From Methanotrichaceae archaeon (GTDB taxonomy: Archaea > Halobacteriota > Methanosarcinia > Methanotrichales > Methanotrichaceae), in assembly GCA_963803145.1 (NCBI GenBank), contig CAWDLW010000040.1, positions 1-12,354 on the forward strand: a DNA stretch of 12,354 nucleotides. Reading direction: 5' to 3'. The stretch's first letter is position 1; the number at the start of each line of letters is the position of its first letter. The position numbers and the translations under genes are program-made. Below the pieces are notes generated by a model. The model saw only the letters and a program-made list of their open reading frames with translations. It ran no database searches and had not been told where the DNA came from. This document shows positions 265-11,663 of this stretch, piece after piece.

Positions 265-717
265 TCAGCGAACTACCAGGACAGGCAGCTTTGAGTTGTG
301 AACTACTTTTTCCGCTACGCTTCCCATCAGGAACTTTTCCAGACCAGTTTTGCCGATGCTGCCTATTACTATTACATCTATCTTATTATCTCCGGCAATT
401 TTCAATATCTCGTTAGATGGATTCCCCTCGACGATCAGCCTCTTGCTTTTGACGCCGGACGCTTTTGCCTGTTCATCCAATTCAAGCGTAGCCTTTTCTC
501 CGGCTTCCTTAAGGCGGACAGCTACATTATCGATTACATCTGGGCTGATTCCTCCAAAGGGCGGGGTAACACCTGCTGATGATATGTACTTATTTATATC
601 TGCAACATAGACGATAGTGACTTCTCCTCCTGAGAGCTTGGCGAGTTCAATACCAGTCGTTGCTGCTTTTTTGCTATTTTTTGACCCATCGGTTGCGATA
701 AGAATACGCTCAAACAT
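265..717 (-). CDS. Universal stress protein (UspA family), copy 1
   Basis: 150 aa. N-terminal ILIATDGSxxSxxA and C-terminal ATP-binding motif G-2x-G-9x-GS (GSIGKTGLEKFLMGS), followed by VAEKVVHNSKLPVLVV, typical of archaeal USPs. Confidence 0.95.
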   Translation of the reverse strand: MFERILIATDGSKNSKKAATTGIELAKLSGGEVTIVYVADINKYISSAGVTPPFGGISPDVIDNVAVRLKEAGEKATLELDEQAKASGVKSKRLIVEGNPSNEILKIAGDNKIDVIVIGSIGKTGLEKFLMGSVAEKVVHNSKLPVLVVR

Positions 718-786: not shown

Positions 787-1431
787 TCAGTGGGGCATGC
801 GAGGTACCGCCGCGGTTTGACTTAATCCCTTTAGTAACATCGAAATCATTATTGGAATAATCGATTCGTTGTCTAATGTATTCGTAAGCAGGTGGTACCA
901 GTAGAATCCAATTAGCAAATCGATAAATGTATCATAATTGGTTTTTTTGATTTCGCCTCGCGCAATTGCACGATCGAGTAATTGTTCCACGAACTTACGT
1001 TGTTTTGGCATAAATGTGTTCTGCAGTTGGTTGAAAGATTGCACATTAGACTGCGCACTGGCAATTAGGTGCCGAATCGCTTTGCCTCTTGCGGTTTCTC
1101 GCCACAAATCCCAGATTCGAAGTGAAAGTTCAGTTAATTCTTTTTCAAGGGAACCCATATCTGGGATGTTTACTCTACTGGCGACGTCTGAATCATATAG
1201 GTCTATGAATAACGAAGCTCTGTCTGGATACCACCGATATATAGTTTGCTTGCCAACACCCGCGCGTTTAGCGATGGCTTCAATACTGATAGCACTAAGC
1301 GGCTGTTCAGTCAGCAAATCAGCAAGTGCTGTTAGCACTGCTTGGCGGGCCCGTTGACATCTGCGGCGTTCGTCTGGCTGTGAGCGGTGATCCTGAGAGC
1401 CGTTTTCTTTGCTGGGAGTGCGTTGTGCCAT
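787..1431 (-). CDS. TetR/AcrR family transcriptional regulator (bacterial-type)
   Basis: TetR helix-turn-helix signature ISIEAIAKRAGVGKQTIYRWYPDRASL and a helical C-terminal domain (IPDMGSLEKEL, LDRAIARGEI). GAGGT RBS-like sequence about 12 nt upstream of the ATG. Confidence 0.93.
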   Translation of the reverse strand: MAQRTPSKENGSQDHRSQPDERRRCQRARQAVLTALADLLTEQPLSAISIEAIAKRAGVGKQTIYRWYPDRASLFIDLYDSDVASRVNIPDMGSLEKELTELSLRIWDLWRETARGKAIRHLIASAQSNVQSFNQLQNTFMPKQRKFVEQLLDRAIARGEIKKTNYDTFIDLLIGFYWYHLLTNTLDNESIIPIMISMLLKGLSQTAAVPRMPH

Positions 1432-1477
1432 ACGAATAGTTAAACCTCGCTTAATCTACTTAATTCTAAGCCAAGAG

Positions 1478-1496
1478 ACGAGACGTACCGTCTAGT
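1478..1496. promoter_or_regulatory. Putative TetR operator (inverted repeat)
   Basis: ACGAGACG-TAC-CGTCTAGT: 8-bp arms with one mismatch and a perfect AGACG/CGTCT core, in the 124-bp divergent intergenic region directly next to the TATA box. Confidence 0.7.
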
Positions 1497-1505
1497 ATTT
1501 ATATG
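1496..1505. promoter_or_regulatory. Probable bidirectional archaeal TATA box
   Basis: tatttatatg reads TTTATATG on + (towards the radical SAM operon) and TATAAATA on - (towards tetR). It is the best TATA-like element in this spacer. Confidence 0.6.
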
Positions 1506-1555
1506 ATTGGATTAGAGTTCAAGCAACTTGACATGCATCCTAGGAGGGGAGATGC

Positions 1556-2974
1556 TTGGTGGACGAAATTACCACTTCCGTTAGCACAGTTAAAAAATGG
1601 ATAGGTAACCCGCTCTCAATAGGTTCACTCAGGTTCATAGCAAAGGATGATAAATGCGGGAACAGACTGTCACTGGCCATCGATTATTACCTCGGTGAGA
1701 AGGTCGAAGCATGCTGGAAGTGCCGATTGGCCGGTCGGATAGTGAGCCGTATTCTCACCGAGGGCGAGAATTTTTTCGGCGTCCAGGATAACGACGTCAG
1801 AAACGCGCTGAAACAGCCTCCCTTTAAGAAGGGCCTTGTGACCATCCTGCGGAGCATTGCTATGTACGGCGTCACAGTGCCCCAGAAAATCTACGCACCT
1901 ATTCTGGTTGTATGGGACTGCACGCATGCCTGCAACCTGATATGCAAACACTGTTACCTGGATGCGCAGATGAAGCTCCCCGATGAGCTGTCCACAGAGG
2001 AGGCGAAGCGTATGATCGACGACCTGGCAAGTTCTGGCGTAGTCGTGCTGGCTTTCTCGGGCGGTGAGCCGCTTATGAGAAAGGATCTCTTAGAATTAGT
2101 TGAGTATGCACGTGGGACTGGCATGTACCTGGCTCTGGCCACCAATGGCACCTTGATCACCAGGGAAGTAGCTAAAAACCTAAAAGAAGCTGGCATAGAG
2201 TATATTGAGATCTCCCTGGACGGCAAAGACGCGCCCACTCATGATAGATTCAGAGGCGTTCCGGGCATGTTCGATAGATCCGTTGAAGGAATCAAAAATT
2301 GTGTGGCTGAGGGACTGTACACCTGCATCGCTACGACTCCCACTAAGCATAACCTCCAGGATATCCCCAAGATATACGATCTGGCGCGTGACCTGAATGC
2401 ATCCAGGCTAGTTTTGTTCAACTTCATACCGACTGGCAGGGGAGCCGATATGGCTGAAAGCGACATATCGCCAGATGAGCGCAAAGCACTGTTAAAGCAG
2501 ATGTTCGAAAAGAACTATGATGGTACTACCGAAGTGCTATCCACCGCGCCTCAATATGCTAGGGTAGCATTGGGGCTGGAAGGTATATCGGTGGGGCATT
2601 TTCTGACATATAAAAAGGTCGATAACCTCATGTTGACGCTGCTTGAGTTCATTGGCGGATGTGGAGCCGGAAGGCATTATTGTTGCATTAGACCCAATGG
2701 CGATATCGAGCCCTGTGTGTTTATGCGGCTCAAGATAGGAAATGTCCGAGAGAGCAAGCTGCTGGATGTCTGGCATAATTCGCCGGTACTTGATCAGTTA
2801 AGAGACAGGAGCAAGCTACAGGGCCATTGTGCTGTGTGCGATCACAAATATATATGCGGCGGCTGCAGGGCGAGAGCCTTAGCCTACTTTGGTGACCTGA
2901 ATGCTCCAGATCCAGGGTGTATCAATAACAAATCCAGCTGGAAAATGCTCTGCGGATCTGCATGTGAAAAATGA
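1556..2974 (+). CDS. Radical SAM protein with SPASM domain and N-terminal extension; resembles archaeal GMGT synthase (Gms) family (often auto-annotated NirJ/PqqE/Ahb-like)
   Basis: CxxxCxxC motif CNLICKHC, FSGGEPL, ATNGTL. SPASM cysteines CGAG...GDIEPC and CAVCDHKYICGGCRARA...DPGC. The ~110-aa N-terminal extension has GNP, CWKC and IAMYGVTVPQ...P.LVVW. TTG start 6 nt after GGAGGGG (1543-1549). Radical SAM/SPASM is secure; the Gms call rests on recalled family features and the neighbouring tes. Confidence 0.85.
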   Translation: MVDEITTSVSTVKKWIGNPLSIGSLRFIAKDDKCGNRLSLAIDYYLGEKVEACWKCRLAGRIVSRILTEGENFFGVQDNDVRNALKQPPFKKGLVTILRSIAMYGVTVPQKIYAPILVVWDCTHACNLICKHCYLDAQMKLPDELSTEEAKRMIDDLASSGVVVLAFSGGEPLMRKDLLELVEYARGTGMYLALATNGTLITREVAKNLKEAGIEYIEISLDGKDAPTHDRFRGVPGMFDRSVEGIKNCVAEGLYTCIATTPTKHNLQDIPKIYDLARDLNASRLVLFNFIPTGRGADMAESDISPDERKALLKQMFEKNYDGTTEVLSTAPQYARVALGLEGISVGHFLTYKKVDNLMLTLLEFIGGCGAGRHYCCIRPNGDIEPCVFMRLKIGNVRESKLLDVWHNSPVLDQLRDRSKLQGHCAVCDHKYICGGCRARALAYFGDLNAPDPGCINNKSSWKMLCGSACEK

Positions 2975-3002
2975 ATTTAACGCTTACTTACGGAGCTATA
3001 GA

Positions 3003-4460
3003 ATGAGCGACGAATCTGAAAATTGGCAGGGCTATGAGTGGACTGCCCTATCCGTCACCACTGTGGGTGCTCTGTTGGCCTCAATCCAGGGTTCTGCCCT
3101 GATTATTGCCCTGCCTGACATCTTGACCCATTTAGATACCGACTTCATAACCATAATGTGGGTGCTCCTAGGCTACCTGCTCATCACCACTGCTGTTGTG
3201 CCCGTCATAGGAAGGTTGGCAGATATGTTCGGGCGTAAGAACCTTTACAACGCAGGTTTCGCAATCTTCACATTAGGTTCGTTGCTTTGCGGCATGTCTC
3301 AGCCCCAGTTCCATGGCTGGGACCTGGTGGGATATCGCCTTATCCAGGGTCTAGGGGGTGCGCTGCTATTCACCAATAGTGCAGCCATAGTGACTGATGC
3401 ATTTAGACATGGCCGCATCGGCCTAGGCCTTGGCGTGAACCAGATTGCAGCTGCGGCAGGATTCCTGATCGGTCCTGTTGTTGGGGGTCTCTTGACTGCC
3501 ATTTCCTGGCAATGGGTTTTCTTTGTGAATGTTCCCCTGGGCATCGCCGGAACTATTTGGGGATTCTTCAGGCTGCGCGAGCCGGTATCTTTGCCTGCAA
3601 AACAAACCTTTGACTGGCTGGGCAGTCTGACCTTCGTCTTTGGCCTGGGATCGCTTCTTATGGCTGTATCGCTGGTAGCCTTTCCGTTGATTAGCATTTC
3701 ATACGTATACATATTATTCGCTTGTGCTGTTATCGGCCTAGCTGCGTTCTTCATGGTGGAGATGCATGTTGACCAGCCCATGCTTGACCTCAAACTCTTC
3801 ATGGATAGGCTATTTGCTTATGCATCAGCCGCCAGATTTCTTAATAGCCTGGCCAGAGGTGCAGTGCTTTTTGTCTTGATCTTTTTCCTTCAGGGTCCTT
3901 ACGGTCTCGACCCTTTAAGTGCAGGCATCATGATGGCTCCATTCGGAGCTGCTTTCATGCTGGTCGGTCCTGTATCGGGCCATCTCTCGGACAAGTATGG
4001 CTCCAGGGGGCTTGCTACGGCTGGCTTGCTGGTCTCAGCTATCGGGCTGCTCGGCCTGGCAACAGTTGTAGGCACAACGCCTTACTGGCGGATCGCGCTA
4101 TATATGATCTTCATGGGCGGTGGATCAGGTCTCTTCGCTTCTCCCAACACCAACGCCATCATGTCCTCAGTACCTCCAGAAAAAAGAGGTATCGCCTCGG
4201 GAACGAACGTCATGCTCATGAACACAGGAAGCATGCTCAGCATAGCCATAGGCTTCCCTCTAGTGCTCAGTCGTATCCCTGTGGATGTCATGTTCCATGT
4301 ATTTCTTTATGGAGGCGGCATGAGTGGTACTTCTCTGACATATTTCGAGACGGGCATGCATGAGGCATTTCTGGTATCCTTTGCCGTCACGCTCGTAGCT
4401 GCGGTTGTGTCTTTCCTGAGGCCGTCTCGAAAATCTATAGAGTTGCATGGAGGGCTATAA
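3003..4460 (+). CDS. MFS transporter, DHA2 (EmrB/QacA-like, 14-TMS) drug:H+ antiporter family
   Basis: ALPDI in the TM1 region, motif A GRLADMFGRK and its repeat GHLSDKYGSR, R-LIQGLGG, antiporter motif GFLIGPVVGGLL, W.WVFFVNVPLG, P.LDL.LF. Start moved from the track's 2901 to ATG 3003, which follows GGAG at 2992-2995 and removes the overlap with the upstream gene. Confidence 0.93.
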   Translation: MSDESENWQGYEWTALSVTTVGALLASIQGSALIIALPDILTHLDTDFITIMWVLLGYLLITTAVVPVIGRLADMFGRKNLYNAGFAIFTLGSLLCGMSQPQFHGWDLVGYRLIQGLGGALLFTNSAAIVTDAFRHGRIGLGLGVNQIAAAAGFLIGPVVGGLLTAISWQWVFFVNVPLGIAGTIWGFFRLREPVSLPAKQTFDWLGSLTFVFGLGSLLMAVSLVAFPLISISYVYILFACAVIGLAAFFMVEMHVDQPMLDLKLFMDRLFAYASAARFLNSLARGAVLFVLIFFLQGPYGLDPLSAGIMMAPFGAAFMLVGPVSGHLSDKYGSRGLATAGLLVSAIGLLGLATVVGTTPYWRIALYMIFMGGGSGLFASPNTNAIMSSVPPEKRGIASGTNVMLMNTGSMLSIAIGFPLVLSRIPVDVMFHVFLYGGGMSGTSLTYFETGMHEAFLVSFAVTLVAAVVSFLRPSRKSIELHGGL

Positions 4461-4465
4461 CAAGC

Positions 4466-5956
4466 ATGGTGAACAAAAATATAATGCAACCGAATATAAT
4501 GCAACCACTCGTTGTAGATCGGACTGTTTTCTCCCTATGCCCCATCTGCCTGAAGGTCATCAATGCCCGCATATTCCTGGAGGGCGGGGCGGTCATGATC
4601 GATAAGCGATGTGAGGAGCACGGTTATTTCAAAGATGTCTACTGGTCGGACATAACTCTTTATGAAAGGTTTATTGGCTACTGGACTGATGGTTCGGGCA
4701 TCGATGGTTCGTCCCAGACACGCCAAGGCTGTCCATTCGACTGCGGCATATGCGAGAACCATAAAACAGGCACGCTCCTGGCGAACATCGATATTACCAG
4801 CAGATGCAACCTCTCTTGTCCGACCTGCTTCGCCGATGCCGGTGATAGCATAAGTGAGCCAACAATGGATCAGCTCAGAACAATGATGAAGATTGTAAGA
4901 GACCAGAAGCCAGTGCCCTGTTCTGCTATCCAGTTCTCAGGCGGCGAGCCTACAATGAGAAACGACCTGCCAGAGATTTTAGCGTTGGCAAGGCAGCTGG
5001 GCTTCACTCAGATACAAATAGCAACCAACGGTATAAAGCTCGCCACCAGCCCCGATCTCTGCAGGAGCTTAGTTCGAAATGGGCTTACTACGGTTTATCT
5101 GCAGTTCGATGGAGTTACGGCAGAGCCTTATAAGATCTTCCGTGGCAGCGATCTCTTGCCCATGAAGCACCAGGCTATTGAAAACTTGAGAAAGGCAAAA
5201 CAAATGAGCACAGTGCTGGTTCCCACTCTTGCAAAGGGTGTAAATGACAGCCAGATAGGTGATATTGTAAAATTTGCTTTACGCAACTCGGATATAGTGA
5301 AGGGTGTAAACTTCCAGCCGGTTTCCTTTACGGGAAGGATCGATCAGTCAGAAAGAAATGAGAAGAGGATTACTATCCCTGACATTTTTTCCCTTCTGGA
5401 GGATCAGATGGATAATGAGATAACTAGAGATGATTTCTATCCTGTTCCTTTTGTCATTCCTATATCAAGTCTTATAGCAGCTGAGACTGGCCTGCCTCAG
5501 CCATCTATGACAGTCCACCCTTGCTGCGGTGCTGCTACTTACATTTACTATATCCACGGCCATATGATCCCTATTACCAGGTTTGTAGATGTTGAAGGTC
5601 TCATGGAGCGAATCCGGGAGGATGTTTTGGATTACGATGGGTCAAGGCTGGGTAGGATCAGGATGAACGGCATGATCCTGAAGGAGCTGCCCAAGTTCAT
5701 AAATGAGCCAAGAACGGCCAGCAGTCTGAATATCACTGGATTGCTGCTGAGCATCTTCAGGAATGGGACTTGGGAATCACTTGCCGAGTTCCATAACAGC
5801 AGCCTCTTTCTTGGCATAATGCATTTCCAGGATCTATACAATATGGATTTAGAGAGATTGCAGAGGTGCGGAATTCATTATGTCTTACCCGACGGCAGAA
5901 TAATACCATTCTGCTCCTATAACACAGTTCACCGATCATCAATAAGATCAGGTTAG
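4466..5956 (+). CDS. tes: Tetraether lipid synthase Tes / GDGT-MAS (MJ0619-family radical SAM; older annotation hydroxymethylpterin dimethyltransferase)
   Basis: All family metal-binding blocks are present: N-terminal SLCPIC...KRCEEHG, CPFDCGICENH, radical SAM CNLSCPTC, QFSGGEPT, YLQFDG, NFQPVSFTGR, HPCCG, and C-terminal MHFQDLYNMDLERLQRCGIHY...DGRIIPFCSYN. The start may instead be the Met at 4484 or 4499. Confidence 0.85.
   Translation: MVNKNIMQPNIMQPLVVDRTVFSLCPICLKVINARIFLEGGAVMIDKRCEEHGYFKDVYWSDITLYERFIGYWTDGSGIDGSSQTRQGCPFDCGICENHKTGTLLANIDITSRCNLSCPTCFADAGDSISEPTMDQLRTMMKIVRDQKPVPCSAIQFSGGEPTMRNDLPEILALARQLGFTQIQIATNGIKLATSPDLCRSLVRNGLTTVYLQFDGVTAEPYKIFRGSDLLPMKHQAIENLRKAKQMSTVLVPTLAKGVNDSQIGDIVKFALRNSDIVKGVNFQPVSFTGRIDQSERNEKRITIPDIFSLLEDQMDNEITRDDFYPVPFVIPISSLIAAETGLPQPSMTVHPCCGAATYIYYIHGHMIPITRFVDVEGLMERIREDVLDYDGSRLGRIRMNGMILKELPKFINEPRTASSLNITGLLLSIFRNGTWESLAEFHNSSLFLGIMHFQDLYNMDLERLQRCGIHYVLPDGRIIPFCSYNTVHRSSIRSG
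4478..4506 (+). repeat. In-frame tandem duplication (15-bp period) at the 5' end of tes
   Basis: aatataatgcaacc at 4478-4491 and 4493-4506, encoding NIMQP-NIMQP. Confidence 0.9.
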
Positions 5957-6004: not shown

Positions 6005-6457
6005 TTAGCGAACTATCAGGACGGGCAGCTTCGAGTTGTGAACCACCTTTTCAGCAACGCTGCCCATTAGAAACTTTTCGAGCCCAGTCTTGCCGATGCT
6101 TCCCATTACTATTACATCCATGTTATTATCTTCTGCAATCTTCAATATCTCATTGGAAGGATTCCCTTCGATAACCAGCCGTTCGCTTTTAACACCAGAG
6201 GCTTTTGCCAGCTCGTCCACTTCAAGCGTAGCTTTTTCGCCCTCCCCCCTAATTCTTGTAAAAAGATTATCGACTGCACTTGGGCTGGCTCCTCCAAATG
6301 GCGGAAGGAGACCCGCTGAAGATGCATACCTGCCTATATCTGCAACAGAGACAATAACGACTTCTCCGCCTGAGAGCTTGGCAAGCTCGATGCCGGTCTT
6401 TGCTGCCTTTTTGCTATACTCCGACCCATCCGTTGCAATAAGAATGCGCTTAAACAC
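6005..6457 (-). CDS. Universal stress protein (UspA family), copy 2
   Basis: 150 aa with a GTG start. Same motifs as copy 1 (ILIATDGS; GSIGKTGLEKFLMGSVAEKVV) and about 79% identical by manual count. Confidence 0.95.
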   Translation of the reverse strand: MFKRILIATDGSEYSKKAAKTGIELAKLSGGEVVIVSVADIGRYASSAGLLPPFGGASPSAVDNLFTRIRGEGEKATLEVDELAKASGVKSERLVIEGNPSNEILKIAEDNNMDVIVMGSIGKTGLEKFLMGSVAEKVVHNSKLPVLIVR

Positions 6458-6497: not shown

Positions 6498-6724
6498 GTT
6501 GAACTGCGAACGGCTGCAGGTTATCTGCAAATAACATGTAAGGGAGAATGCCAAGACTTTGACTTATTAGATGATCTAGGCGATTTCCGGCATTTGTGGA
6601 CACTGCAATGAAGACTTGTTCTCGGAGAATATGTCCATACAGGTATCCTCAGATCCCTTACCAAGCCTTAAAATAAGTTCAACGTCGTAATGACGAAATA
6701 AATATGAATGGAGGCGTTTTTAAG

Positions 6725-7387
6725 ATGAAAATTCTAGGGATAAACGGTAGCCCTAGGGGCTCCAAGAGTCAGACGCTCGTATTGGTTGAGGCTGTATTGG
6801 ATGGTGCAAACGCTTCCGGCGCAGAGGTAGAGCTAGTGGATGTATGCGAACTGAAGATAGATTACTGCAACGCTTGTGGAGTATGTTATGCTAAGGGCAA
6901 GTGCATCCATGAAGATGACTTTGAAGGCCTGTATCGCAAGATACTGGAGTGCGATGGTCTTGTCCTGGTATCTCCAGTATATTTCAGATCTGTAACTGCC
7001 CAGCTAAAGACGTTGATAGACCGGATGTCAGATGCTATCCATTGTCAGCTTCTCACAGATAAATATGGATGTGCCGTGGCGACCGCAGGAAGCCCTAATT
7101 ATACGGAGGTAACGGACTACCTTGGCCGGATTATTACAGGATTCGGTGCATTTACAGTAGGTAGTGTTGGCGCCAGCCCATCGATTCCTGGAGATATAGA
7201 GGCTAAAAAGAAGGAGGCATCCAAGCTTGGGCAAACGCTGGCAGATGCAATAAAGACCAAGCGTGCCTATCCTGAACAGGATGCTATACACAATGAGACA
7301 CGCAATCGCTTCAAATCGATGGTCAAGGTGAACAAAGATATTTGGGCCCATCAGTACGAGCATTGGGAGAAGATGGGTTGGCTTTGA
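6725..7387 (+). CDS. Iron-sulfur flavoprotein (Isf) / multimeric flavodoxin WrbA-like, NADPH-dependent FMN reductase fold
   Basis: MKILGINGSPR FMN-binding loop, compact Cys motif CNACGVCYAKGKC (Cx2Cx2Cx5C), and SPVYF..VTAQLKTLIDR. Start set at ATG 6725, after GGAGG at 6710-6714. Confidence 0.92.
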   Translation: MKILGINGSPRGSKSQTLVLVEAVLDGANASGAEVELVDVCELKIDYCNACGVCYAKGKCIHEDDFEGLYRKILECDGLVLVSPVYFRSVTAQLKTLIDRMSDAIHCQLLTDKYGCAVATAGSPNYTEVTDYLGRIITGFGAFTVGSVGASPSIPGDIEAKKKEASKLGQTLADAIKTKRAYPEQDAIHNETRNRFKSMVKVNKDIWAHQYEHWEKMGWL

Positions 7388-7416
7388 GTAAGAGATTATT
7401 GGCGCTAGTCCCAGAA

Positions 7417-7430
7417 TTTTTTTGCAAAAA
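7417..7430. terminator. T7 tract / palindrome tttttgcaaaaa after isf (terminator or operator)
   Basis: T run at 7417-7423 and a perfect 12-bp palindrome at 7419-7430, just upstream of the ABC promoter. Confidence 0.35.
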
Positions 7431-7437
7431 TGCCGAA

Positions 7438-7450
7438 GCGAATTTAATAG
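7438..7450 (+). promoter_or_regulatory. Probable BRE-TATA for the ABC exporter operon
   Basis: gcgaa-TTTAATAG with the TATA starting 30 nt before ATG 7473. No clear RBS, consistent with a near-leaderless mRNA. Confidence 0.5.
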
Positions 7451-7472
7451 TTTAAGGACCGGGTTCACTACA

Positions 7473-8453
7473 ATGTTTGCAATTGAAGTTAAACAGCTTA
7501 CAAAAGTTTATAATGGCGATGTTAAAGCACTGGATGGTGTTGATTTTAGTGTTAATGCCGGTGATGTTTTTGCCATGTTGGGCCCCAACGGCTCAGGTAA
7601 AACCACTTTGATGCGGATTTTGACCACGCAGTTCAAGCCTACCTCAGGTGAAGCATATATTTTCGGGCTGGACGTCGCAAAGAACGACGCGCAGGTCAGA
7701 AAAATTATAAGCTATGTTCCACAGGAGGTGAGCGTCTGGAATGATATTACCGGTTTTGAGAACCTTCTCATATACGCTAAGGTTTATGGTCTCCCTTCAA
7801 AGAACAGGAAACAGATTATTTGGGACGCTCTGGATAGTATGGGCCTAAACGAAGTTGCGAATAACCTTGTTAAGACATATTCCGGTGGCATGATCAGAAG
7901 ACTCGAAATCGCATGTGCTATGATGATCAGGCCTAAGCTTCTGTTTTTAGATGAACCCACTCTCGGCCTGGACCCTTCTGCCAGAAAGGCGGTCTGGGAA
8001 AACATGACATCCTTCAAGAAGGAGTGTGGAACAACTGTATTTTTTAATACGCATTATATGGATGAGGCCGACCTTTACTCGGATAAGATAGCCATAATTA
8101 ATAGAGGTAAGATGGTCAAGTTTGGAACGGCCAGTGAACTTAAACATTCTCTGAGGAGAGAGGTCATTCGATTCAGCTTGAGGAATCATGGTGTTGATGA
8201 AGGTGTTCTGAAGAAGATTGGGAGTTCGGGTTTTGTTAACGATGTTTTTATTCATAACTCAAGGCTAGATGTAGTTGTTGAGGATGCGGAGACTGCGTTA
8301 CCTGATGTCATTGAGCTATTGAGAACCGAGGGAATTTCTGCGACGAAGATCTCCATGTCCAGACCAACTTTAGATGATGTCTTCTTAGAGTACGCCGGGA
8401 GCATACATTCGATGAGCCACACAGGCGAAAGAGCCCTGACCGGGAAGGAGTAG
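7473..8453 (+). CDS. ABC-2 type multidrug exporter ATP-binding subunit (DrrA-like)
   Basis: Walker A GPNGSGKT, Q-loop YVPQE, signature YSGGM, Walker B LLFLDEPT, H-loop THYMDEAD, and DrrA-type C-terminal PTLDDVFL. Start moved from TTG 7422 to ATG 7473 (MFAIEVKQL). Confidence 0.95.
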   Translation: MFAIEVKQLTKVYNGDVKALDGVDFSVNAGDVFAMLGPNGSGKTTLMRILTTQFKPTSGEAYIFGLDVAKNDAQVRKIISYVPQEVSVWNDITGFENLLIYAKVYGLPSKNRKQIIWDALDSMGLNEVANNLVKTYSGGMIRRLEIACAMMIRPKLLFLDEPTLGLDPSARKAVWENMTSFKKECGTTVFFNTHYMDEADLYSDKIAIINRGKMVKFGTASELKHSLRREVIRFSLRNHGVDEGVLKKIGSSGFVNDVFIHNSRLDVVVEDAETALPDVIELLRTEGISATKISMSRPTLDDVFLEYAGSIHSMSHTGERALTGKE

Positions 8454-8455
8454 CT

Positions 8456-9226
8456 ATGGCGATGAAGGATTCTTTGAGAGAGATGTTTGCTATGATAGAA
8501 CTTGAGCTGAGGAGACTTAAGCATGATCGAAAGGAGATGTATACGAGGGCGATTCAACCAATTTTATGGCTGGTAGTTTATGGAACTGTCATGAGTCACG
8601 TGAGAGCAATACCTACTGATGGGATACCTTACCTGGATTATATTACTCCGGGCGTTCTACTACAATCCACTATATTTGTGTCAGTTTTTTACGGTCTCAC
8701 AATCGTATGGGAAAGGGAAACTGGCACTTTGAAGAAGCTCCTTGTGGCGCCTGCATCCAGATATGCTATAGTTATAGGCAGATCCATAGCTTCCGGAGTC
8801 CGAGCAATTTTTCAGGCTCTAATAATCTTGCCGATCGCGTGGCTTTTAGGTGTAAAAATTATATCCAATCCATTATTCCTATTAGCGGCATTTTTAATAC
8901 TGTTCTTTGTCTCCGGTGGTTTCGCTGCCATCTCAATTTTTGTTGCATCTCTTATGAAAACCAGAGAGAGATTTATGGGGATAGGTCAGGCTTTGATCAT
9001 GCCGCTCTTCTTTGCCAGCAGCGCACTATATCCGATTAAGTTGATGCCTCAAATCCTGCAATATTTCGCAATCTTTAATCCATTAACATATGCAGTAGAC
9101 GCTGTTAGGGGCCTGATGATTTCCGGAGATCTGACCAACCTTTTACCTGATATTGCAGTCATAGCTATCTTCGATATTGCTATGTTTATAATAGCTTCTA
9201 TAAGCTTCAGGAAGATCATAGAATGA
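8456..9226 (+). CDS. ABC-2 type exporter permease (DrrB-like)
   Basis: About 6 hydrophobic segments, with YLDYITPGVL, ERETGTLKKLLVAP, PLFFASSALYP and NPLTYAVDAVR motifs. Begins 2 nt after the ATPase stop. Confidence 0.95.
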   Translation: MAMKDSLREMFAMIELELRRLKHDRKEMYTRAIQPILWLVVYGTVMSHVRAIPTDGIPYLDYITPGVLLQSTIFVSVFYGLTIVWERETGTLKKLLVAPASRYAIVIGRSIASGVRAIFQALIILPIAWLLGVKIISNPLFLLAAFLILFFVSGGFAAISIFVASLMKTRERFMGIGQALIMPLFFASSALYPIKLMPQILQYFAIFNPLTYAVDAVRGLMISGDLTNLLPDIAVIAIFDIAMFIIASISFRKIIE

Positions 9227-9286
9227 TTTATTCCGGGTCTGTGAAATATGTAACGAGCAAAAACACTCCATGAAGGCAAGAATGAC

Positions 9287-9314
9287 ATGAACTTTTTCAT
9301 TAATTTTTATTTTT
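9287..9314 (+). terminator. Possible terminator of the ABC operon
   Basis: Short inverted repeat atgaa-cttt-ttcat followed by T tracts (taatttttattttt). Confidence 0.4.
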
Positions 9315-9396
9315 ACCGGAACACAATCAGTAATCCATTTATACGCAAGAGATCTTATGAAGCGTGGATTATGTTTTCCACATCTTATGAGGTGAA

Positions 9397-10056
9397 ATGA
9401 TGACTACGAATAGCAACGGGGATTGCAACCATTTTCTTGATGAGATCATTGAATCACGACGATCTATCCGAGCTTTTAAGAACGATATACCGCCGAAAGA
9501 TGCCATTAAGGCAATAATACGTGCAGGTTTGTTTGCTCCCTACGCAGGGGCGGCATTAGATCAAGGAGAATTCAGGCGTTTTGTAGTCATCCAAAATGGC
9601 GGCACTACAATGGCGAAAGTTGGAGCGCTCATGCAGCGACAAATAAAAGCGATATACAATAACATAAGCCTGGAGATGGAGCGCGATCCAGCTATGAAGA
9701 GCAGGGCTCAGAATTTTGCAAGGAGACTTGAGGCGGTTTCAAAGGAAGATCTACCGGGTGTTGGGACTGCACCTTATTTCATAGTAGTAGCGGAGAGGAA
9801 GGGATTTCCTCCAGTAGAACATTGGTCTTTAGCACATTGTCTTCAAAATATGTGGCTGAAGGCTACTGCTCTTGATCTGGGATTTCATCTTGTATCAGTG
9901 ACGGCTGAGATGGCAAAGGATAAAGAATTCTGTGATCTCATTGGAGTTCCTTTCGGAGAGTTCGAAATTAATGGATGCGCTGTAGGATATCCATTGAAGA
10001 AGCTGCCTCCTGCAGAGCGCCAAGATGTGGATGAGGTCACAAGCTGGCTTGATTGA
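9397..10056 (+). CDS. Nitroreductase family protein
   Basis: IIESRRSIRAF FMN-binding motif, AG.FAP, and QNMWLKATALDLG...VGYP. The RBS GAGGTGA (9389-9395) may favour the second ATG at 9400. TATA-like TTTATA at 9338-9343. Confidence 0.93.
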   Translation: MMTTNSNGDCNHFLDEIIESRRSIRAFKNDIPPKDAIKAIIRAGLFAPYAGAALDQGEFRRFVVIQNGGTTMAKVGALMQRQIKAIYNNISLEMERDPAMKSRAQNFARRLEAVSKEDLPGVGTAPYFIVVAERKGFPPVEHWSLAHCLQNMWLKATALDLGFHLVSVTAEMAKDKEFCDLIGVPFGEFEINGCAVGYPLKKLPPAERQDVDEVTSWLD

Positions 10057-10209
10057 TCGTGATACTAGACCGCTAAAAAAGTTATAAAACCAATACGTGC
10101 ATTGTCTAGGTCTACTGTTTAGCTAAGGCTTAATGCCTTTAAGGAGCAGTGATCTGAACGTATAAGGAACTTAACGATAGGCCAAAAGTTAAAAGTAGCT
10201 AGTGTCTTA

Positions 10210-10851
10210 TTATTTCTTCTCCATAAAAGCGTAGTTTGCTAAATGAGTCACAGATTTACCTCTGATCTCTATTGTTTTTAATTCTTTTATGTTGAAGTAT
10301 GGCTCAAAGAGGTCTCTCAGTTCCTCAACAGAAGAGAGATATAAAATAGTGCCTATTCGGGTTTCTACATATTTCTCTGAGCCCCCAAATTGGGGATCCT
10401 TTTCATTGAAACAGACTGAGAGGTATTTGCCTCTTGGATTAAGTATTTTATGAACATTTTCGACATATTTCTTCCTTTCCTCAGGGAATATGTGATGCAG
10501 CAGCTCCCAATCGTATGCAAAATCAAAAGTTTCTGTTACCTCATTCAGATTGCCAAGGACATCGGCAACAAGGAACTTGCTCTTGACTCCTTTCTTCTTT
10601 GCATTTTCCTTGGCGAGCTTTATTGCTGTTGGGGAGATATCGACTCCTGTCACATCGAACCCAATACTCGCAAGATAAATAGCGTAGTTGCCAGCGCCAC
10701 AACCTAAATCAATAGTTTTGCACGGTTTTACTTTTTCGCTCTTAACTAATTCGATTAGAGCATCTGGAGGCGCCTCTATATTCCAAGGGATATTCTCAAG
10801 ACTCATATTTCTATAAATCTTATCTATCTCAGCCTGTTTTATGCCATCCAT
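10210..10851 (-). CDS. Class I SAM-dependent methyltransferase (TPMT/TehB-like small-molecule type)
   Basis: Motif I IDLGCGAG, VTGVDISPTAI, N-terminal IPWN...PP, and FD.AYD...LHHI. GAGGT upstream and tandem TAA TAA stops. Confidence 0.92.
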   Translation of the reverse strand: MDGIKQAEIDKIYRNMSLENIPWNIEAPPDALIELVKSEKVKPCKTIDLGCGAGNYAIYLASIGFDVTGVDISPTAIKLAKENAKKKGVKSKFLVADVLGNLNEVTETFDFAYDWELLHHIFPEERKKYVENVHKILNPRGKYLSVCFNEKDPQFGGSEKYVETRIGTILYLSSVEELRDLFEPYFNIKELKTIEIRGKSVTHLANYAFMEKK

Positions 10852-11081
10852 ACTTTACCTCGCACCTTTCTCCAGCATATAGCCTTACGGTTGAGTATTT
10901 ATGACCGAATATTTAAATCATTAATATCTGGAGTATTTCGAACGGCTAGTTATGGCAAGAAGGCGTTGTAAAATGATCATTTATATAGTGCGAGTGCTGA
11001 TGTTATCTTGGACCTGGAGAATGGATTTTATAATGAACAATCCCTGCGAAAAATTATAGTTAGGTTGGGCTTCATAAAATA

Positions 11082-11663
11082 ATGCATATGTCAGAGGATT
11101 TAGTTATAGATAAAAGCAAAACCGCTTTTGTAGTCATCGATCTACAGAAAGGCGTTACGGCTATGCTGAGCAGGCCATACACCGCACAAGAAGTAATTTC
11201 ACACGCGTCTAAGCTGGTGAACGCATTTAGGAAAAACAATATGCCTGTATTCCTTGTGCATGTGGAAATGACAAAAGAGACAATGCTAAACGTCATAAGT
11301 GACCAGACATTCTCTAGACCTCAGTCACCTTCTTCAGATTGGGCTGAGTTTGTTCCAGAGCTTACTCCTACACCAAAGGATATTGTGATCACAAAGAGGC
11401 AGTGGGGAGCTTTTTATGGGACTGACCTCGATCTACAGCTGAGAAGACGGAAAATAGATACAATAGTGCTTTGCGGAATATCGACTGACTTTGGGGTTGA
11501 GAGCACCGCAAGATTCGCCTACGAGTACGGCTACCAGCAGATCTTTGCAGAGGACGCGATGGCCTCAAGATCTGATGAACAGCATAACGTCGCAGTCAAC
11601 TTCATTTTCAAGAGAATTGGCAGAGTAAGAAAGACTGATGAAATAGTAAAGGCGATAGAATAA
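11082..11663 (+). CDS. Isochorismatase-family hydrolase, YecD-like
   Basis: VVIDLQKG and ITKRQWGAFYGTDLDLQLRRRKIDTIVLCGISTDFGVESTAR, the YecD-type signature. The start may be ATG 11088. BRE/TATA-like cgaaaaattatag at 11047-11059. Confidence 0.92.
   Translation: MHMSEDLVIDKSKTAFVVIDLQKGVTAMLSRPYTAQEVISHASKLVNAFRKNNMPVFLVHVEMTKETMLNVISDQTFSRPQSPSSDWAEFVPELTPTPKDIVITKRQWGAFYGTDLDLQLRRRKIDTIVLCGISTDFGVESTARFAYEYGYQQIFAEDAMASRSDEQHNVAVNFIFKRIGRVRKTDEIVKAIE

Follow-up and report, generated by a model that had tools for sequence, protein, structure and literature searches.

Here we describe a four-gene cassette on a 12,354-nt contig (the entire contig, hereafter the window) of an uncultured Methanotrichaceae archaeon related to the methane producer Methanothrix. 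With fair probability, we consider this cassette to be an accessory operon under repressor control that serves to make cross-linked lipids spanning the membrane. The cassette consists of tetR (787-1431, minus strand), coding for a TetR-family regulator of 214 aa, and of three genes that diverge from it on the plus strand: gene 1 for a Gms-type radical S-adenosylmethionine (SAM)/SPASM enzyme (1556-2974, 472 aa), a gene for a DHA2/EmrB-like exporter of the major facilitator superfamily (MFS; 3003-4460, 485 aa) and tes2 for a second Tes/GDGT-MAS paralogue (4466-5956, 496 aa). The genes were assigned by open reading frame (ORF) calls together with Pfam or, for tes2, NCBIfam. Judged from their sequences, the gene 1 product and Tes2 most likely fuse and cross-link membrane lipids, and a stress-inducible function of the cassette is plausible.

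The layout is the one put forward in an earlier note on this DNA: three genes that run in one direction and are spaced by 28 nt (2975-3002) and 5 nt (4461-4465), a divergent tetR and a palindrome at a TATA-like box. Each gap or gene end in the cassette carries a GGAG(G) motif, and a T-run was not found in either the 28- or the 5-nt gap. The three genes downstream of tetR are laid out like an operon and would be expected to be co-transcribed. Gene 1 starts with TTG at 1556 or GTG at 1559, with GGAGG 8-11 nt ahead; an ATG close by, at 1552, does not share this frame. The MFS gene has a longer frame from 2901; GGAG precedes the start at 3003, and homologues align from residue 1 of this start. Scans of the window for Rfam families and tRNAs gave no matches.

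The divergent region between tetR and gms measures 124 nt and contains the palindrome AGACG-TAC-CGTCT (1481-1493), directly preceded by an additional AGACG half-site at 1476-1480; together they form the candidate TetR operator (1476-1493). The TATA-like box of the putative gms-mfs-tes2 promoter, TATTTATAT (1496-1504, plus strand), follows 2 nt downstream of the palindrome. A 21-nt block, GAGACGAGACGT(A/G)CCGTCTA, is retained in all six cassette copies that we read (window, L009, L010, L021, L029 and L095). The operator arms are likewise intact in six of six, and the sole operator change is one in the spacer of L029. The remaining intergenic DNA diverges among the copies, with an insertion of ~160 nt in L021; the (T/A)TTTATA core of the TATA-like box is present in every one of them. 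Because the arms are conserved while the flanking intergenic DNA diverges, the palindrome stands above chance, and the divergent TetR gene with an operator-like palindrome at the promoter, as the earlier note had it, is borne out. In the 4.13-Mb genome the exact palindrome pattern occurs at two sites (a reversed-pattern control gave seven). The second lies inside an ORF, so that we see no sign of a wider TetR regulon. The operator abuts the TATA-like box at the position expected for the archaeal transcription factor B recognition element (BRE), which makes promoter occlusion the natural reading of repression.

Gene 1 matches Radical_SAM (5.8e-28) and SPASM (2.2e-10) in Pfam. Its best NCBIfam matches are NirJ2 and AhbD, which reach 299 bits (E ~5e-89) against cut-offs of 500 bits and cover residues 117-458 only, leaving over an N-terminal extension of ~110-116 residues. 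Gms was first recognised as a homologue of AhbD that is extended by 100 residues at its N-terminus (PMC11214058). Its description elsewhere comprises a six-helix N-domain, a radical SAM core and a SPASM domain that carries two auxiliary clusters (PMC11186832). In an AlphaFold2 (AF2) model of gene 1, built from 43 homologues (predicted local distance difference test, pLDDT, 91.4; predicted template modelling score, pTM, 0.91), the N-domain indeed has six helices (residues 2-16, 19-28, 37-45, 54-74, 78-85 and 88-104). Among 43 sequences Cys126/130/133, 369, 387, 428, 434 and 437 are invariant, and Cys425 and 455 are nearly so. The closest solved folds are those of the SPASM maturases SkfB, SuiB and PqqE; there is no solved Gms structure to compare gene 1 with, and an ESM Atlas search returned generic archaeal radical SAM/SPASM clusters only.

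The N-terminal extension aligns across 52 homologues. In a quick tree of 56 sequences from genomes of the same phylum and metagenome contigs, the 52 N-extended rows split from four short AhbC/D-like rows with a support of 94 in the Shimodaira-Hasegawa-like approximate likelihood ratio test (SH-aLRT). The genome of the window also has separate short AhbC/D-like genes. With its CxxxCxxC and SPASM cysteines, its six-helix extension of ~100 residues and its separation from AhbC/AhbD/NirJ, the predicted gene 1 product fits the published family of glycerol monoalkyl glycerol tetraether (GMGT) synthases (Gms). The earlier note had called gene 1 Gms-like and named a grouping with AhbC/AhbD/PqqE as the result that would speak against it; the tree split and the AhbD/NirJ2 scores below cut-off uphold the Gms-type call. 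An in-frame TGA in the gms copies of genome G002 proved to be merely an earlier stop, three codons ahead of that in the window.

Gene 1 belongs to a 15-row clade (support 97) together with L033 and L034, where a gene for a B12-binding radical SAM protein of the Gmm type directly follows gms. We also examined the ±7-kb neighbourhoods of 50 other gms loci, the window's own clade excluded. In 12 of these, L033 and L034 being counted among them, a gmm-type gene is one of the two nearest genes on a side of gms, and two further matches are partial. The link of gene 1 to the experimentally proven Gms proteins (PF0647, X802_RS00105, A3L02_02305 and METOK_RS04425) is an indirect one and runs through this gmm adjacency in its relatives. 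Pfam searches on the 96 immediate neighbours gave Radical_SAM 16 times, B12-binding 10 times, TrmB five times, MFS_1 three times, and FMN_red and the Tes Zn-ribbon twice each. The named relatives of the proteins with which the cassette Gms groups are from Methanocella, Methanoregula, Methanomicrobium and similar genera.

The window genome has another Gms-like radical SAM/SPASM gene with the N-extension at C15:320670-322058 (L015:8653-10107, minus strand), which shares 38% identity with gene 1. It has a very long branch and copies in G001, G002 and G012. Its neighbours are ftsZ on one side and a DNA ligase gene on the other, and it adjoins neither gmm nor tes nor a transporter gene. An approximately unbiased (AU) test with 30 of the 56 rows under LG+G4, for a group named after the tree was seen, rejects one clade for the cassette Gms and this other Gms-like gene of the family (delta lnL 105.6, p 1.5e-50). 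By this sequence comparison, the cassette Gms did not arise through a recent duplication of the other Gms-like gene in the family; it is of a different lineage. The N-domain of gene 1 (window 1556-1730, Gms residues 34-56) also carries the motif CG-x-R ... ACWKCR, with Cys34, Cys53 and Cys56. This motif is common to the window's clade and a second large clade (L042-L045, L048, L067) and is missing from the remaining Gms-type sequences; possibly it forms a metal site.

Tes2 scores 640.6 bits with the Tes equivalog model NF045702 (cut-off 450), matches Zn_ribbon_HMPTM (PF23545, 2.5e-17) and Radical_SAM in Pfam, and aligns over residues 18-493 with GDGT-MAS (PDB 7TOL; E 7e-157). The cysteine motifs CPICLK, GCPxDCGxC, CNLxCPxC, HxxCG, RCxIHY and PFCxYN are all aligned between the two. 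Equivalog score, Zn-ribbon plus radical SAM core, full-length alignment and Cys ligands together place Tes2 in the Tes/GDGT-MAS family, and the model score and the 7TOL alignment bear out the original Tes call.

The other Tes of the window genome, Tes1 on C15, scores 681 bits, and Tes2 is 67% identical to it. In the Tes tree all family sequences fall into one clade (99). Nested in it is a seven-row Tes2 clade (99), which unites the Tes2 of the cassettes with the second Tes of G001, G005 and G019 and is separate from the Tes1 of G000, G001 and G002; because of this nesting, Tes2 is a paralogue that arose inside the family. Tes1 has no comparable TetR switch nearby, and its neighbourhood has no GGR or ferredoxin gene of the kind reported for M. 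acetivorans. The idea that such a switch explains cryptic tes genes in mostly diether-producing methanogens thus holds for the extra paralogue Tes2 only and not for Tes1, a separate gene without a nearby switch. Tes genes are unevenly spread within the family: in 10 of the 24 family genomes sampled there is no match at E<=1e-80, and at least two copies are present in the window genome and five sampled family genomes. G001, which is of the same genus, lacks tetR and gms and has, at L080:3462-4952, a Tes2-type gene followed directly by glycosyltransferase (GT2) and DUF116 genes, with a paralogous MFS and an ABC gene ~2.5 kb on. In G002, at L010:4637-5575, a GT4 glycosyltransferase gene lies directly downstream of a Tes2-type gene. 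These glycosyltransferases may be lipid head-group enzymes.

The regulator matches TetR_N (6.8e-9) and TetR_C_11 (7.9e-19). An N-terminal helix-turn-helix, a C-terminal ligand domain and a palindrome at the target promoter are what one would expect of a TetR-type repressor. The gene is single-copy in the window genome at E<=1e-5. Its homologues comprise ~30 clusters at 54-100% identity and then matches at <=40% in cyanobacteria and actinobacteria; the clusters at >=54% are from Methanotrichaceae where they are named. By these matches TetR is bacterial-like. The MFS protein is a clear MFS_1 member (5.7e-56), and the DHA2 call made for it earlier stands as DHA2-like; the nearest relatives that have a name carry annotations as drug exporters of the EmrB/QacA type. 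A crude hydropathy count at a strict threshold gave eight strongly hydrophobic segments (the DHA2 expectation is 14 transmembrane segments). It belongs to a large Methanothrix/Methanotrichaceae family with 72-94% identity, in which the cassette MFS forms its own subgroup at 89-94%, and three paralogues at 80-83% are encoded elsewhere in the window genome. By these relationships, the MFS gene is native to Methanotrichaceae.

With tetR as the marker, the cassette was found in four of 105 Methanotrichaceae genomes, from three genera: the window genome (G000), G002 with two copies, G422 (L021, Gms 84% identical to that of the window) and G492. Additionally, the metagenome contig L029 carries tetR and gms at its end. 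G002 has two copies, with 99.3% identity, of a 5,111-bp block that begins at the 3' end of tetR and finishes at that of tes2. The window matches this block at 89% with the same ends, and the block ends are the cassette ends. dN/dS values are 0.06-0.13 in all four genes (TetR 0.13, MFS 0.06-0.08), and dS is alike, 0.81-0.98 against L021; all four genes are under purifying selection. From this data we conclude that the four-gene cassette, although rare, is real, conserved and mobile-looking, and that it is inherited and duplicated as a unit. The concern, raised in the earlier note, that the synteny might be a one-off is removed by its presence in these four family genomes and one metagenome contig. 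In G492 the locus is split over two contigs that overlap at the promoter (C189 and C65; L095:1-620 joined to the end of L094), and gms has an internal deletion of ~1.08 kb that fuses ~18 N-terminal codons to the C-terminal part. The genome keeps tetR, a perfect operator, an intact mfs (92%) and tes2 (83%) despite this deletion. G005 has only a C-terminal gms fragment, near its Tes2-type gene. Close homologues of the cassette Gms, TetR and MFS are reported on same-sized contigs (72394; 13151; 14011; 3502; 3259148), which hints at further cassette copies in public metagenomes.

Two genes for universal stress proteins (Usp) flank the cassette, at 265-717 (minus strand; Pfam Usp 1.8e-34) and 6005-6457 (minus strand; 1e-35), and share 78% identity. 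G002 has a 2.46-kb segment with the end of tes2, a paralogous MFS gene and a Usp gene that is repeated at 99.2% identity on both sides of the locus (L009:1260-3718 and 12326-14784). The locus region is prone to segmental duplication, which may be the reason why the window contig is so short. Positions 6704-11663 of the window encode a flavin mononucleotide (FMN)-reductase-like flavoprotein with a CxxCxxCxxxxxC motif, a DrrA-like ATP-binding cassette (ABC) ATPase with an ABC-2 permease, a nitroreductase, a TPMT/TehB-like methyltransferase and an isochorismatase, and judging by these annotations and the two Usp genes the neighbourhood looks like a stress/detoxification island. The flavoprotein and ABC genes (6704-9226, plus strand; FMN_red, ABC_tran with DrrA1-3_C, ABC2_membrane) lie outside the duplicated block and are possibly associated with the cassette. 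FMN-reductase/ABC-type genes and a TrmB regulator also stand beside gms homologues in L024, L026, L028 and L032; an operon of TrmB and an ABC-2 exporter abuts gms in L024, L028 and L032, and L028 also has an FMN-reductase-like gene. A regulator and an exporter thus recur beside gms in these loci with different protein families, which we take as a lead.

How could the cassette work? We envisage that a TetR dimer binds the palindrome abutting the TATA box, covers the BRE position and blocks gms-mfs-tes2 transcription until a ligand, most likely a lipophilic or amphiphilic one, releases it. Tes2 would then join archaeol-type diether tails to give glycerol dialkyl glycerol tetraethers (GDGT), macrocyclic archaeol or both. 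Gms would cross-link the two biphytanyl chains to furnish GMGT, and the co-transcribed MFS pump would export the compound that induces the operon or damages the membrane. What we infer in this scheme are the repression, the kind of ligand, the joint transcription, the lipids made and the substrate of the pump.

Several observations weigh against this reading. A 5+3+5 palindrome is, by our own estimate, not unlikely to arise by chance in 124 nt, so that taken alone it is statistically ordinary, and the MFS protein reaches 198.8 bits with the DHA2 model TIGR00711, below the cut-off of 230.2. Among 187 neighbouring ORFs of the 50 other gms loci, phmmer found no TetR match. By phmmer, an MFS gene stands directly beside gms only in L011 (Pfam, as given above, has three MFS_1 matches among the 96 immediate neighbours). 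In these loci tes adjoins gms only in L020 and L026, where the order is tes then gms, TrmB is divergent, and Gms is 78-79% but Tes only 48% identical. In the phylum sample, tes-gms adjacency appears, among the matches listed, only in G116. Because TetR, tes and MFS genes are rarely or never beside gms elsewhere, the architecture is not recurrent outside a narrow clade. Furthermore, G492 indicates that the cassette persists without Gms, since tetR, operator, mfs and tes2 are kept there with gms deleted. Finally, MA_1114, the second Tes of M. acetivorans, gave traces of macrocyclic archaeol and no GDGT (PMC8941075), and for this reason Tes2 may not supply GDGT.

The same enzymes could also serve another logic, in which TetR senses an endogenous lipid or intermediate and the MFS protein is a flippase or lipid exporter and not a toxin pump. 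FadR- and DesT-type regulators provide such homeostatic feedback by sensing lipids. This idea is in line with the place of the MFS gene, which has the genes for the lipid enzymes 28 and 5 nt away on its two sides. It also agrees with the retention of the MFS gene next to tes2 even where gms is deleted (G492), with the paralogous MFS gene ~2.5 kb from the Tes2-type gene of G001 with glycosyltransferase genes between, and with the distinct 89-94% subgroup that the cassette MFS forms in its native family. However, the closest named MFS relatives carry drug-exporter annotations of the EmrB/QacA type and the neighbourhood is rich in detoxification genes, and we regard lipid feedback as unlikely, if still worth keeping in mind. 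One may also ask whether the cassette is an ordinary TetR plus MFS efflux module into which lipid genes were inserted or to which they were appended, co-transcribed without any selected coupling of cross-linking and efflux. The parts do have different histories (a bacterial-like TetR, a native MFS, a Tes2 from a family paralogue and a Gms that, by the AU test on a group chosen after the tree, p 1.5e-50, is not a recent duplicate of the other Gms-like gene), and the locus is plastic, with duplications and remnants. Yet the entire block is duplicated with the cassette ends as its ends, all four genes show purifying selection and similar dS, and other gms lineages stand independently beside TrmB and ABC-2 genes (L024, L026, L028); we find such an uncoupled assembly quite improbable.

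Very little probability remains, in our view, for a role outside lipids, with gene 1 coding for a tetrapyrrole enzyme of the AhbD/NirJ type or for a SPASM maturase that acts on some other substrate, or with the gene pair making an exported small molecule. A TetR gene with an exporter is also typical of biosynthetic clusters, NirJ2 and AhbD are the best curated matches of gene 1 (E ~5e-89), and SkfB, SuiB and PqqE are its nearest solved folds. Against this, the AhbD/NirJ2 scores stay at 299 bits versus cut-offs of 500 and leave residues 1-116 uncovered, and separate short AhbC/D-like genes exist in the genome. The N-domain and the tree placement of gene 1 follow the Gms definition, and a precursor-peptide gene was not seen in the 28- and 5-nt gaps. 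Going beyond the repressor-controlled lipid operon that we favour, one may speculate about a portable module of membrane armour plus bilge pump, in which a chemical signal would lead to cross-linked GMGT monolayer lipids in an acetoclastic methanogen lineage that otherwise has diether membranes, together with export of the harmful compound, the same logic being assembled independently in other methanogen lineages with TrmB and ABC-2, and in which the GMGT of wetlands and digesters would partly record chemical stress and not temperature. We offer this wider picture tentatively and hold it to be doubtful as a whole.

How does the cassette relate to known systems? In bacteria, TetR-family repressors are paired with divergent MFS efflux pumps in QacR-QacA-type systems. 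The cassette shares with these the divergent repressor, the palindromic operator at the promoter and a DHA2-like pump; it differs in that the pump is in one unit with two lipid C-C coupling enzymes, under an archaeal TATA-type promoter. With the archaeal gms-gmm pairs (Garcia et al. 2024, PMC11214058; Gms also PMC11186832) it has in common the N-extension, AhbD-like core and SPASM domain of gene 1, whose relatives at 42-59% identity adjoin B12-binding radical SAM genes. In contrast, the cassette is without gmm (the top B12 radical SAM match that the genome offers reaches 28% identity and is found at a different locus), and the partners are the MFS gene and a Tes paralogue. Bacterial gms-tes and gms-mss gene clusters are known from Acidobacteria and Planctomycetes (PMC11214058, 2024), and co-expression of gms and tes turns a diether host into a GMGT producer (PMC11186832). 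As in the gms-tes clusters, gms and tes are physically clustered here, an arrangement that implies that the step of lipid spanning and that of cross-linking are coupled in sequence. Compared with the text descriptions of these clusters, the cassette differs in being archaeal, with a pump gene between the enzymes and a TetR switch upstream.

The genes for GDGT methylases (cgm/pgm) co-occur with MFS genes in 56% of cases and also with MarR regulators, and amphiphiles induce the methylation, according to a preprint (10.1101/2025.10.20.683597). A lipid-tailoring radical SAM enzyme, an MFS exporter and a one-component regulator are thus found together there too, with a proposed link to membrane-destabilising chemicals. 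The enzymes, however, are B12 methylases and not Gms/Tes, the regulator is MarR and not TetR, and the hosts are Sulfolobaceae, Thermoplasmata and Thermococcus. Second Tes homologues, among them MA_1114, occur in 22 of 322 methanogen genomes (Zeng et al. 2022, PMC8941075), and Tes2 is likewise an extra paralogue beside a primary one. Tes2 keeps all Cys motifs in the alignment with 7TOL, and it is not an orthologue of MA_1114, because it arose by duplication within Methanotrichaceae. Our literature search, to which supplementary neighbourhood figures did not belong, found no description of a tetR-gms-mfs-tes layout nor of TetR control of tes or gms. As far as this search goes, the novelty claimed in the earlier note stands for this four-gene layout; the novelty of the idea itself was overstated in view of the bacterial gms-tes clusters of 2024 and of the 2025 preprint with its MFS genes, one-component regulators and amphiphile induction. 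What we have here are known lipid enzymes combined in a new regulatory and transport setting.

In summary, the regulation of archaeal lipid tailoring is in our view largely uncharted, and the cassette bears on how archaea control it. It is a compact natural construct for such studies, comprising a regulator, an operator, two enzymes, a pump and even a natural gms-deletion variant. Methanotrichaceae, the family of Methanothrix, rank among the main groups that form methane from acetate in wetlands, sediments and digesters, and those members that are in culture are described as having diether lipids. If our reading is true, the gms-tes2 operon would offer a concrete way, open to testing, in which some of them come to form GDGT and H-shaped GMGT only under certain conditions. 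This would bear on who produces GMGT in mesophilic peat and sediments, where many of the peat gms sequences cluster with Methanomicrobia (PMC11214058), and on what GMGT biomarkers record.

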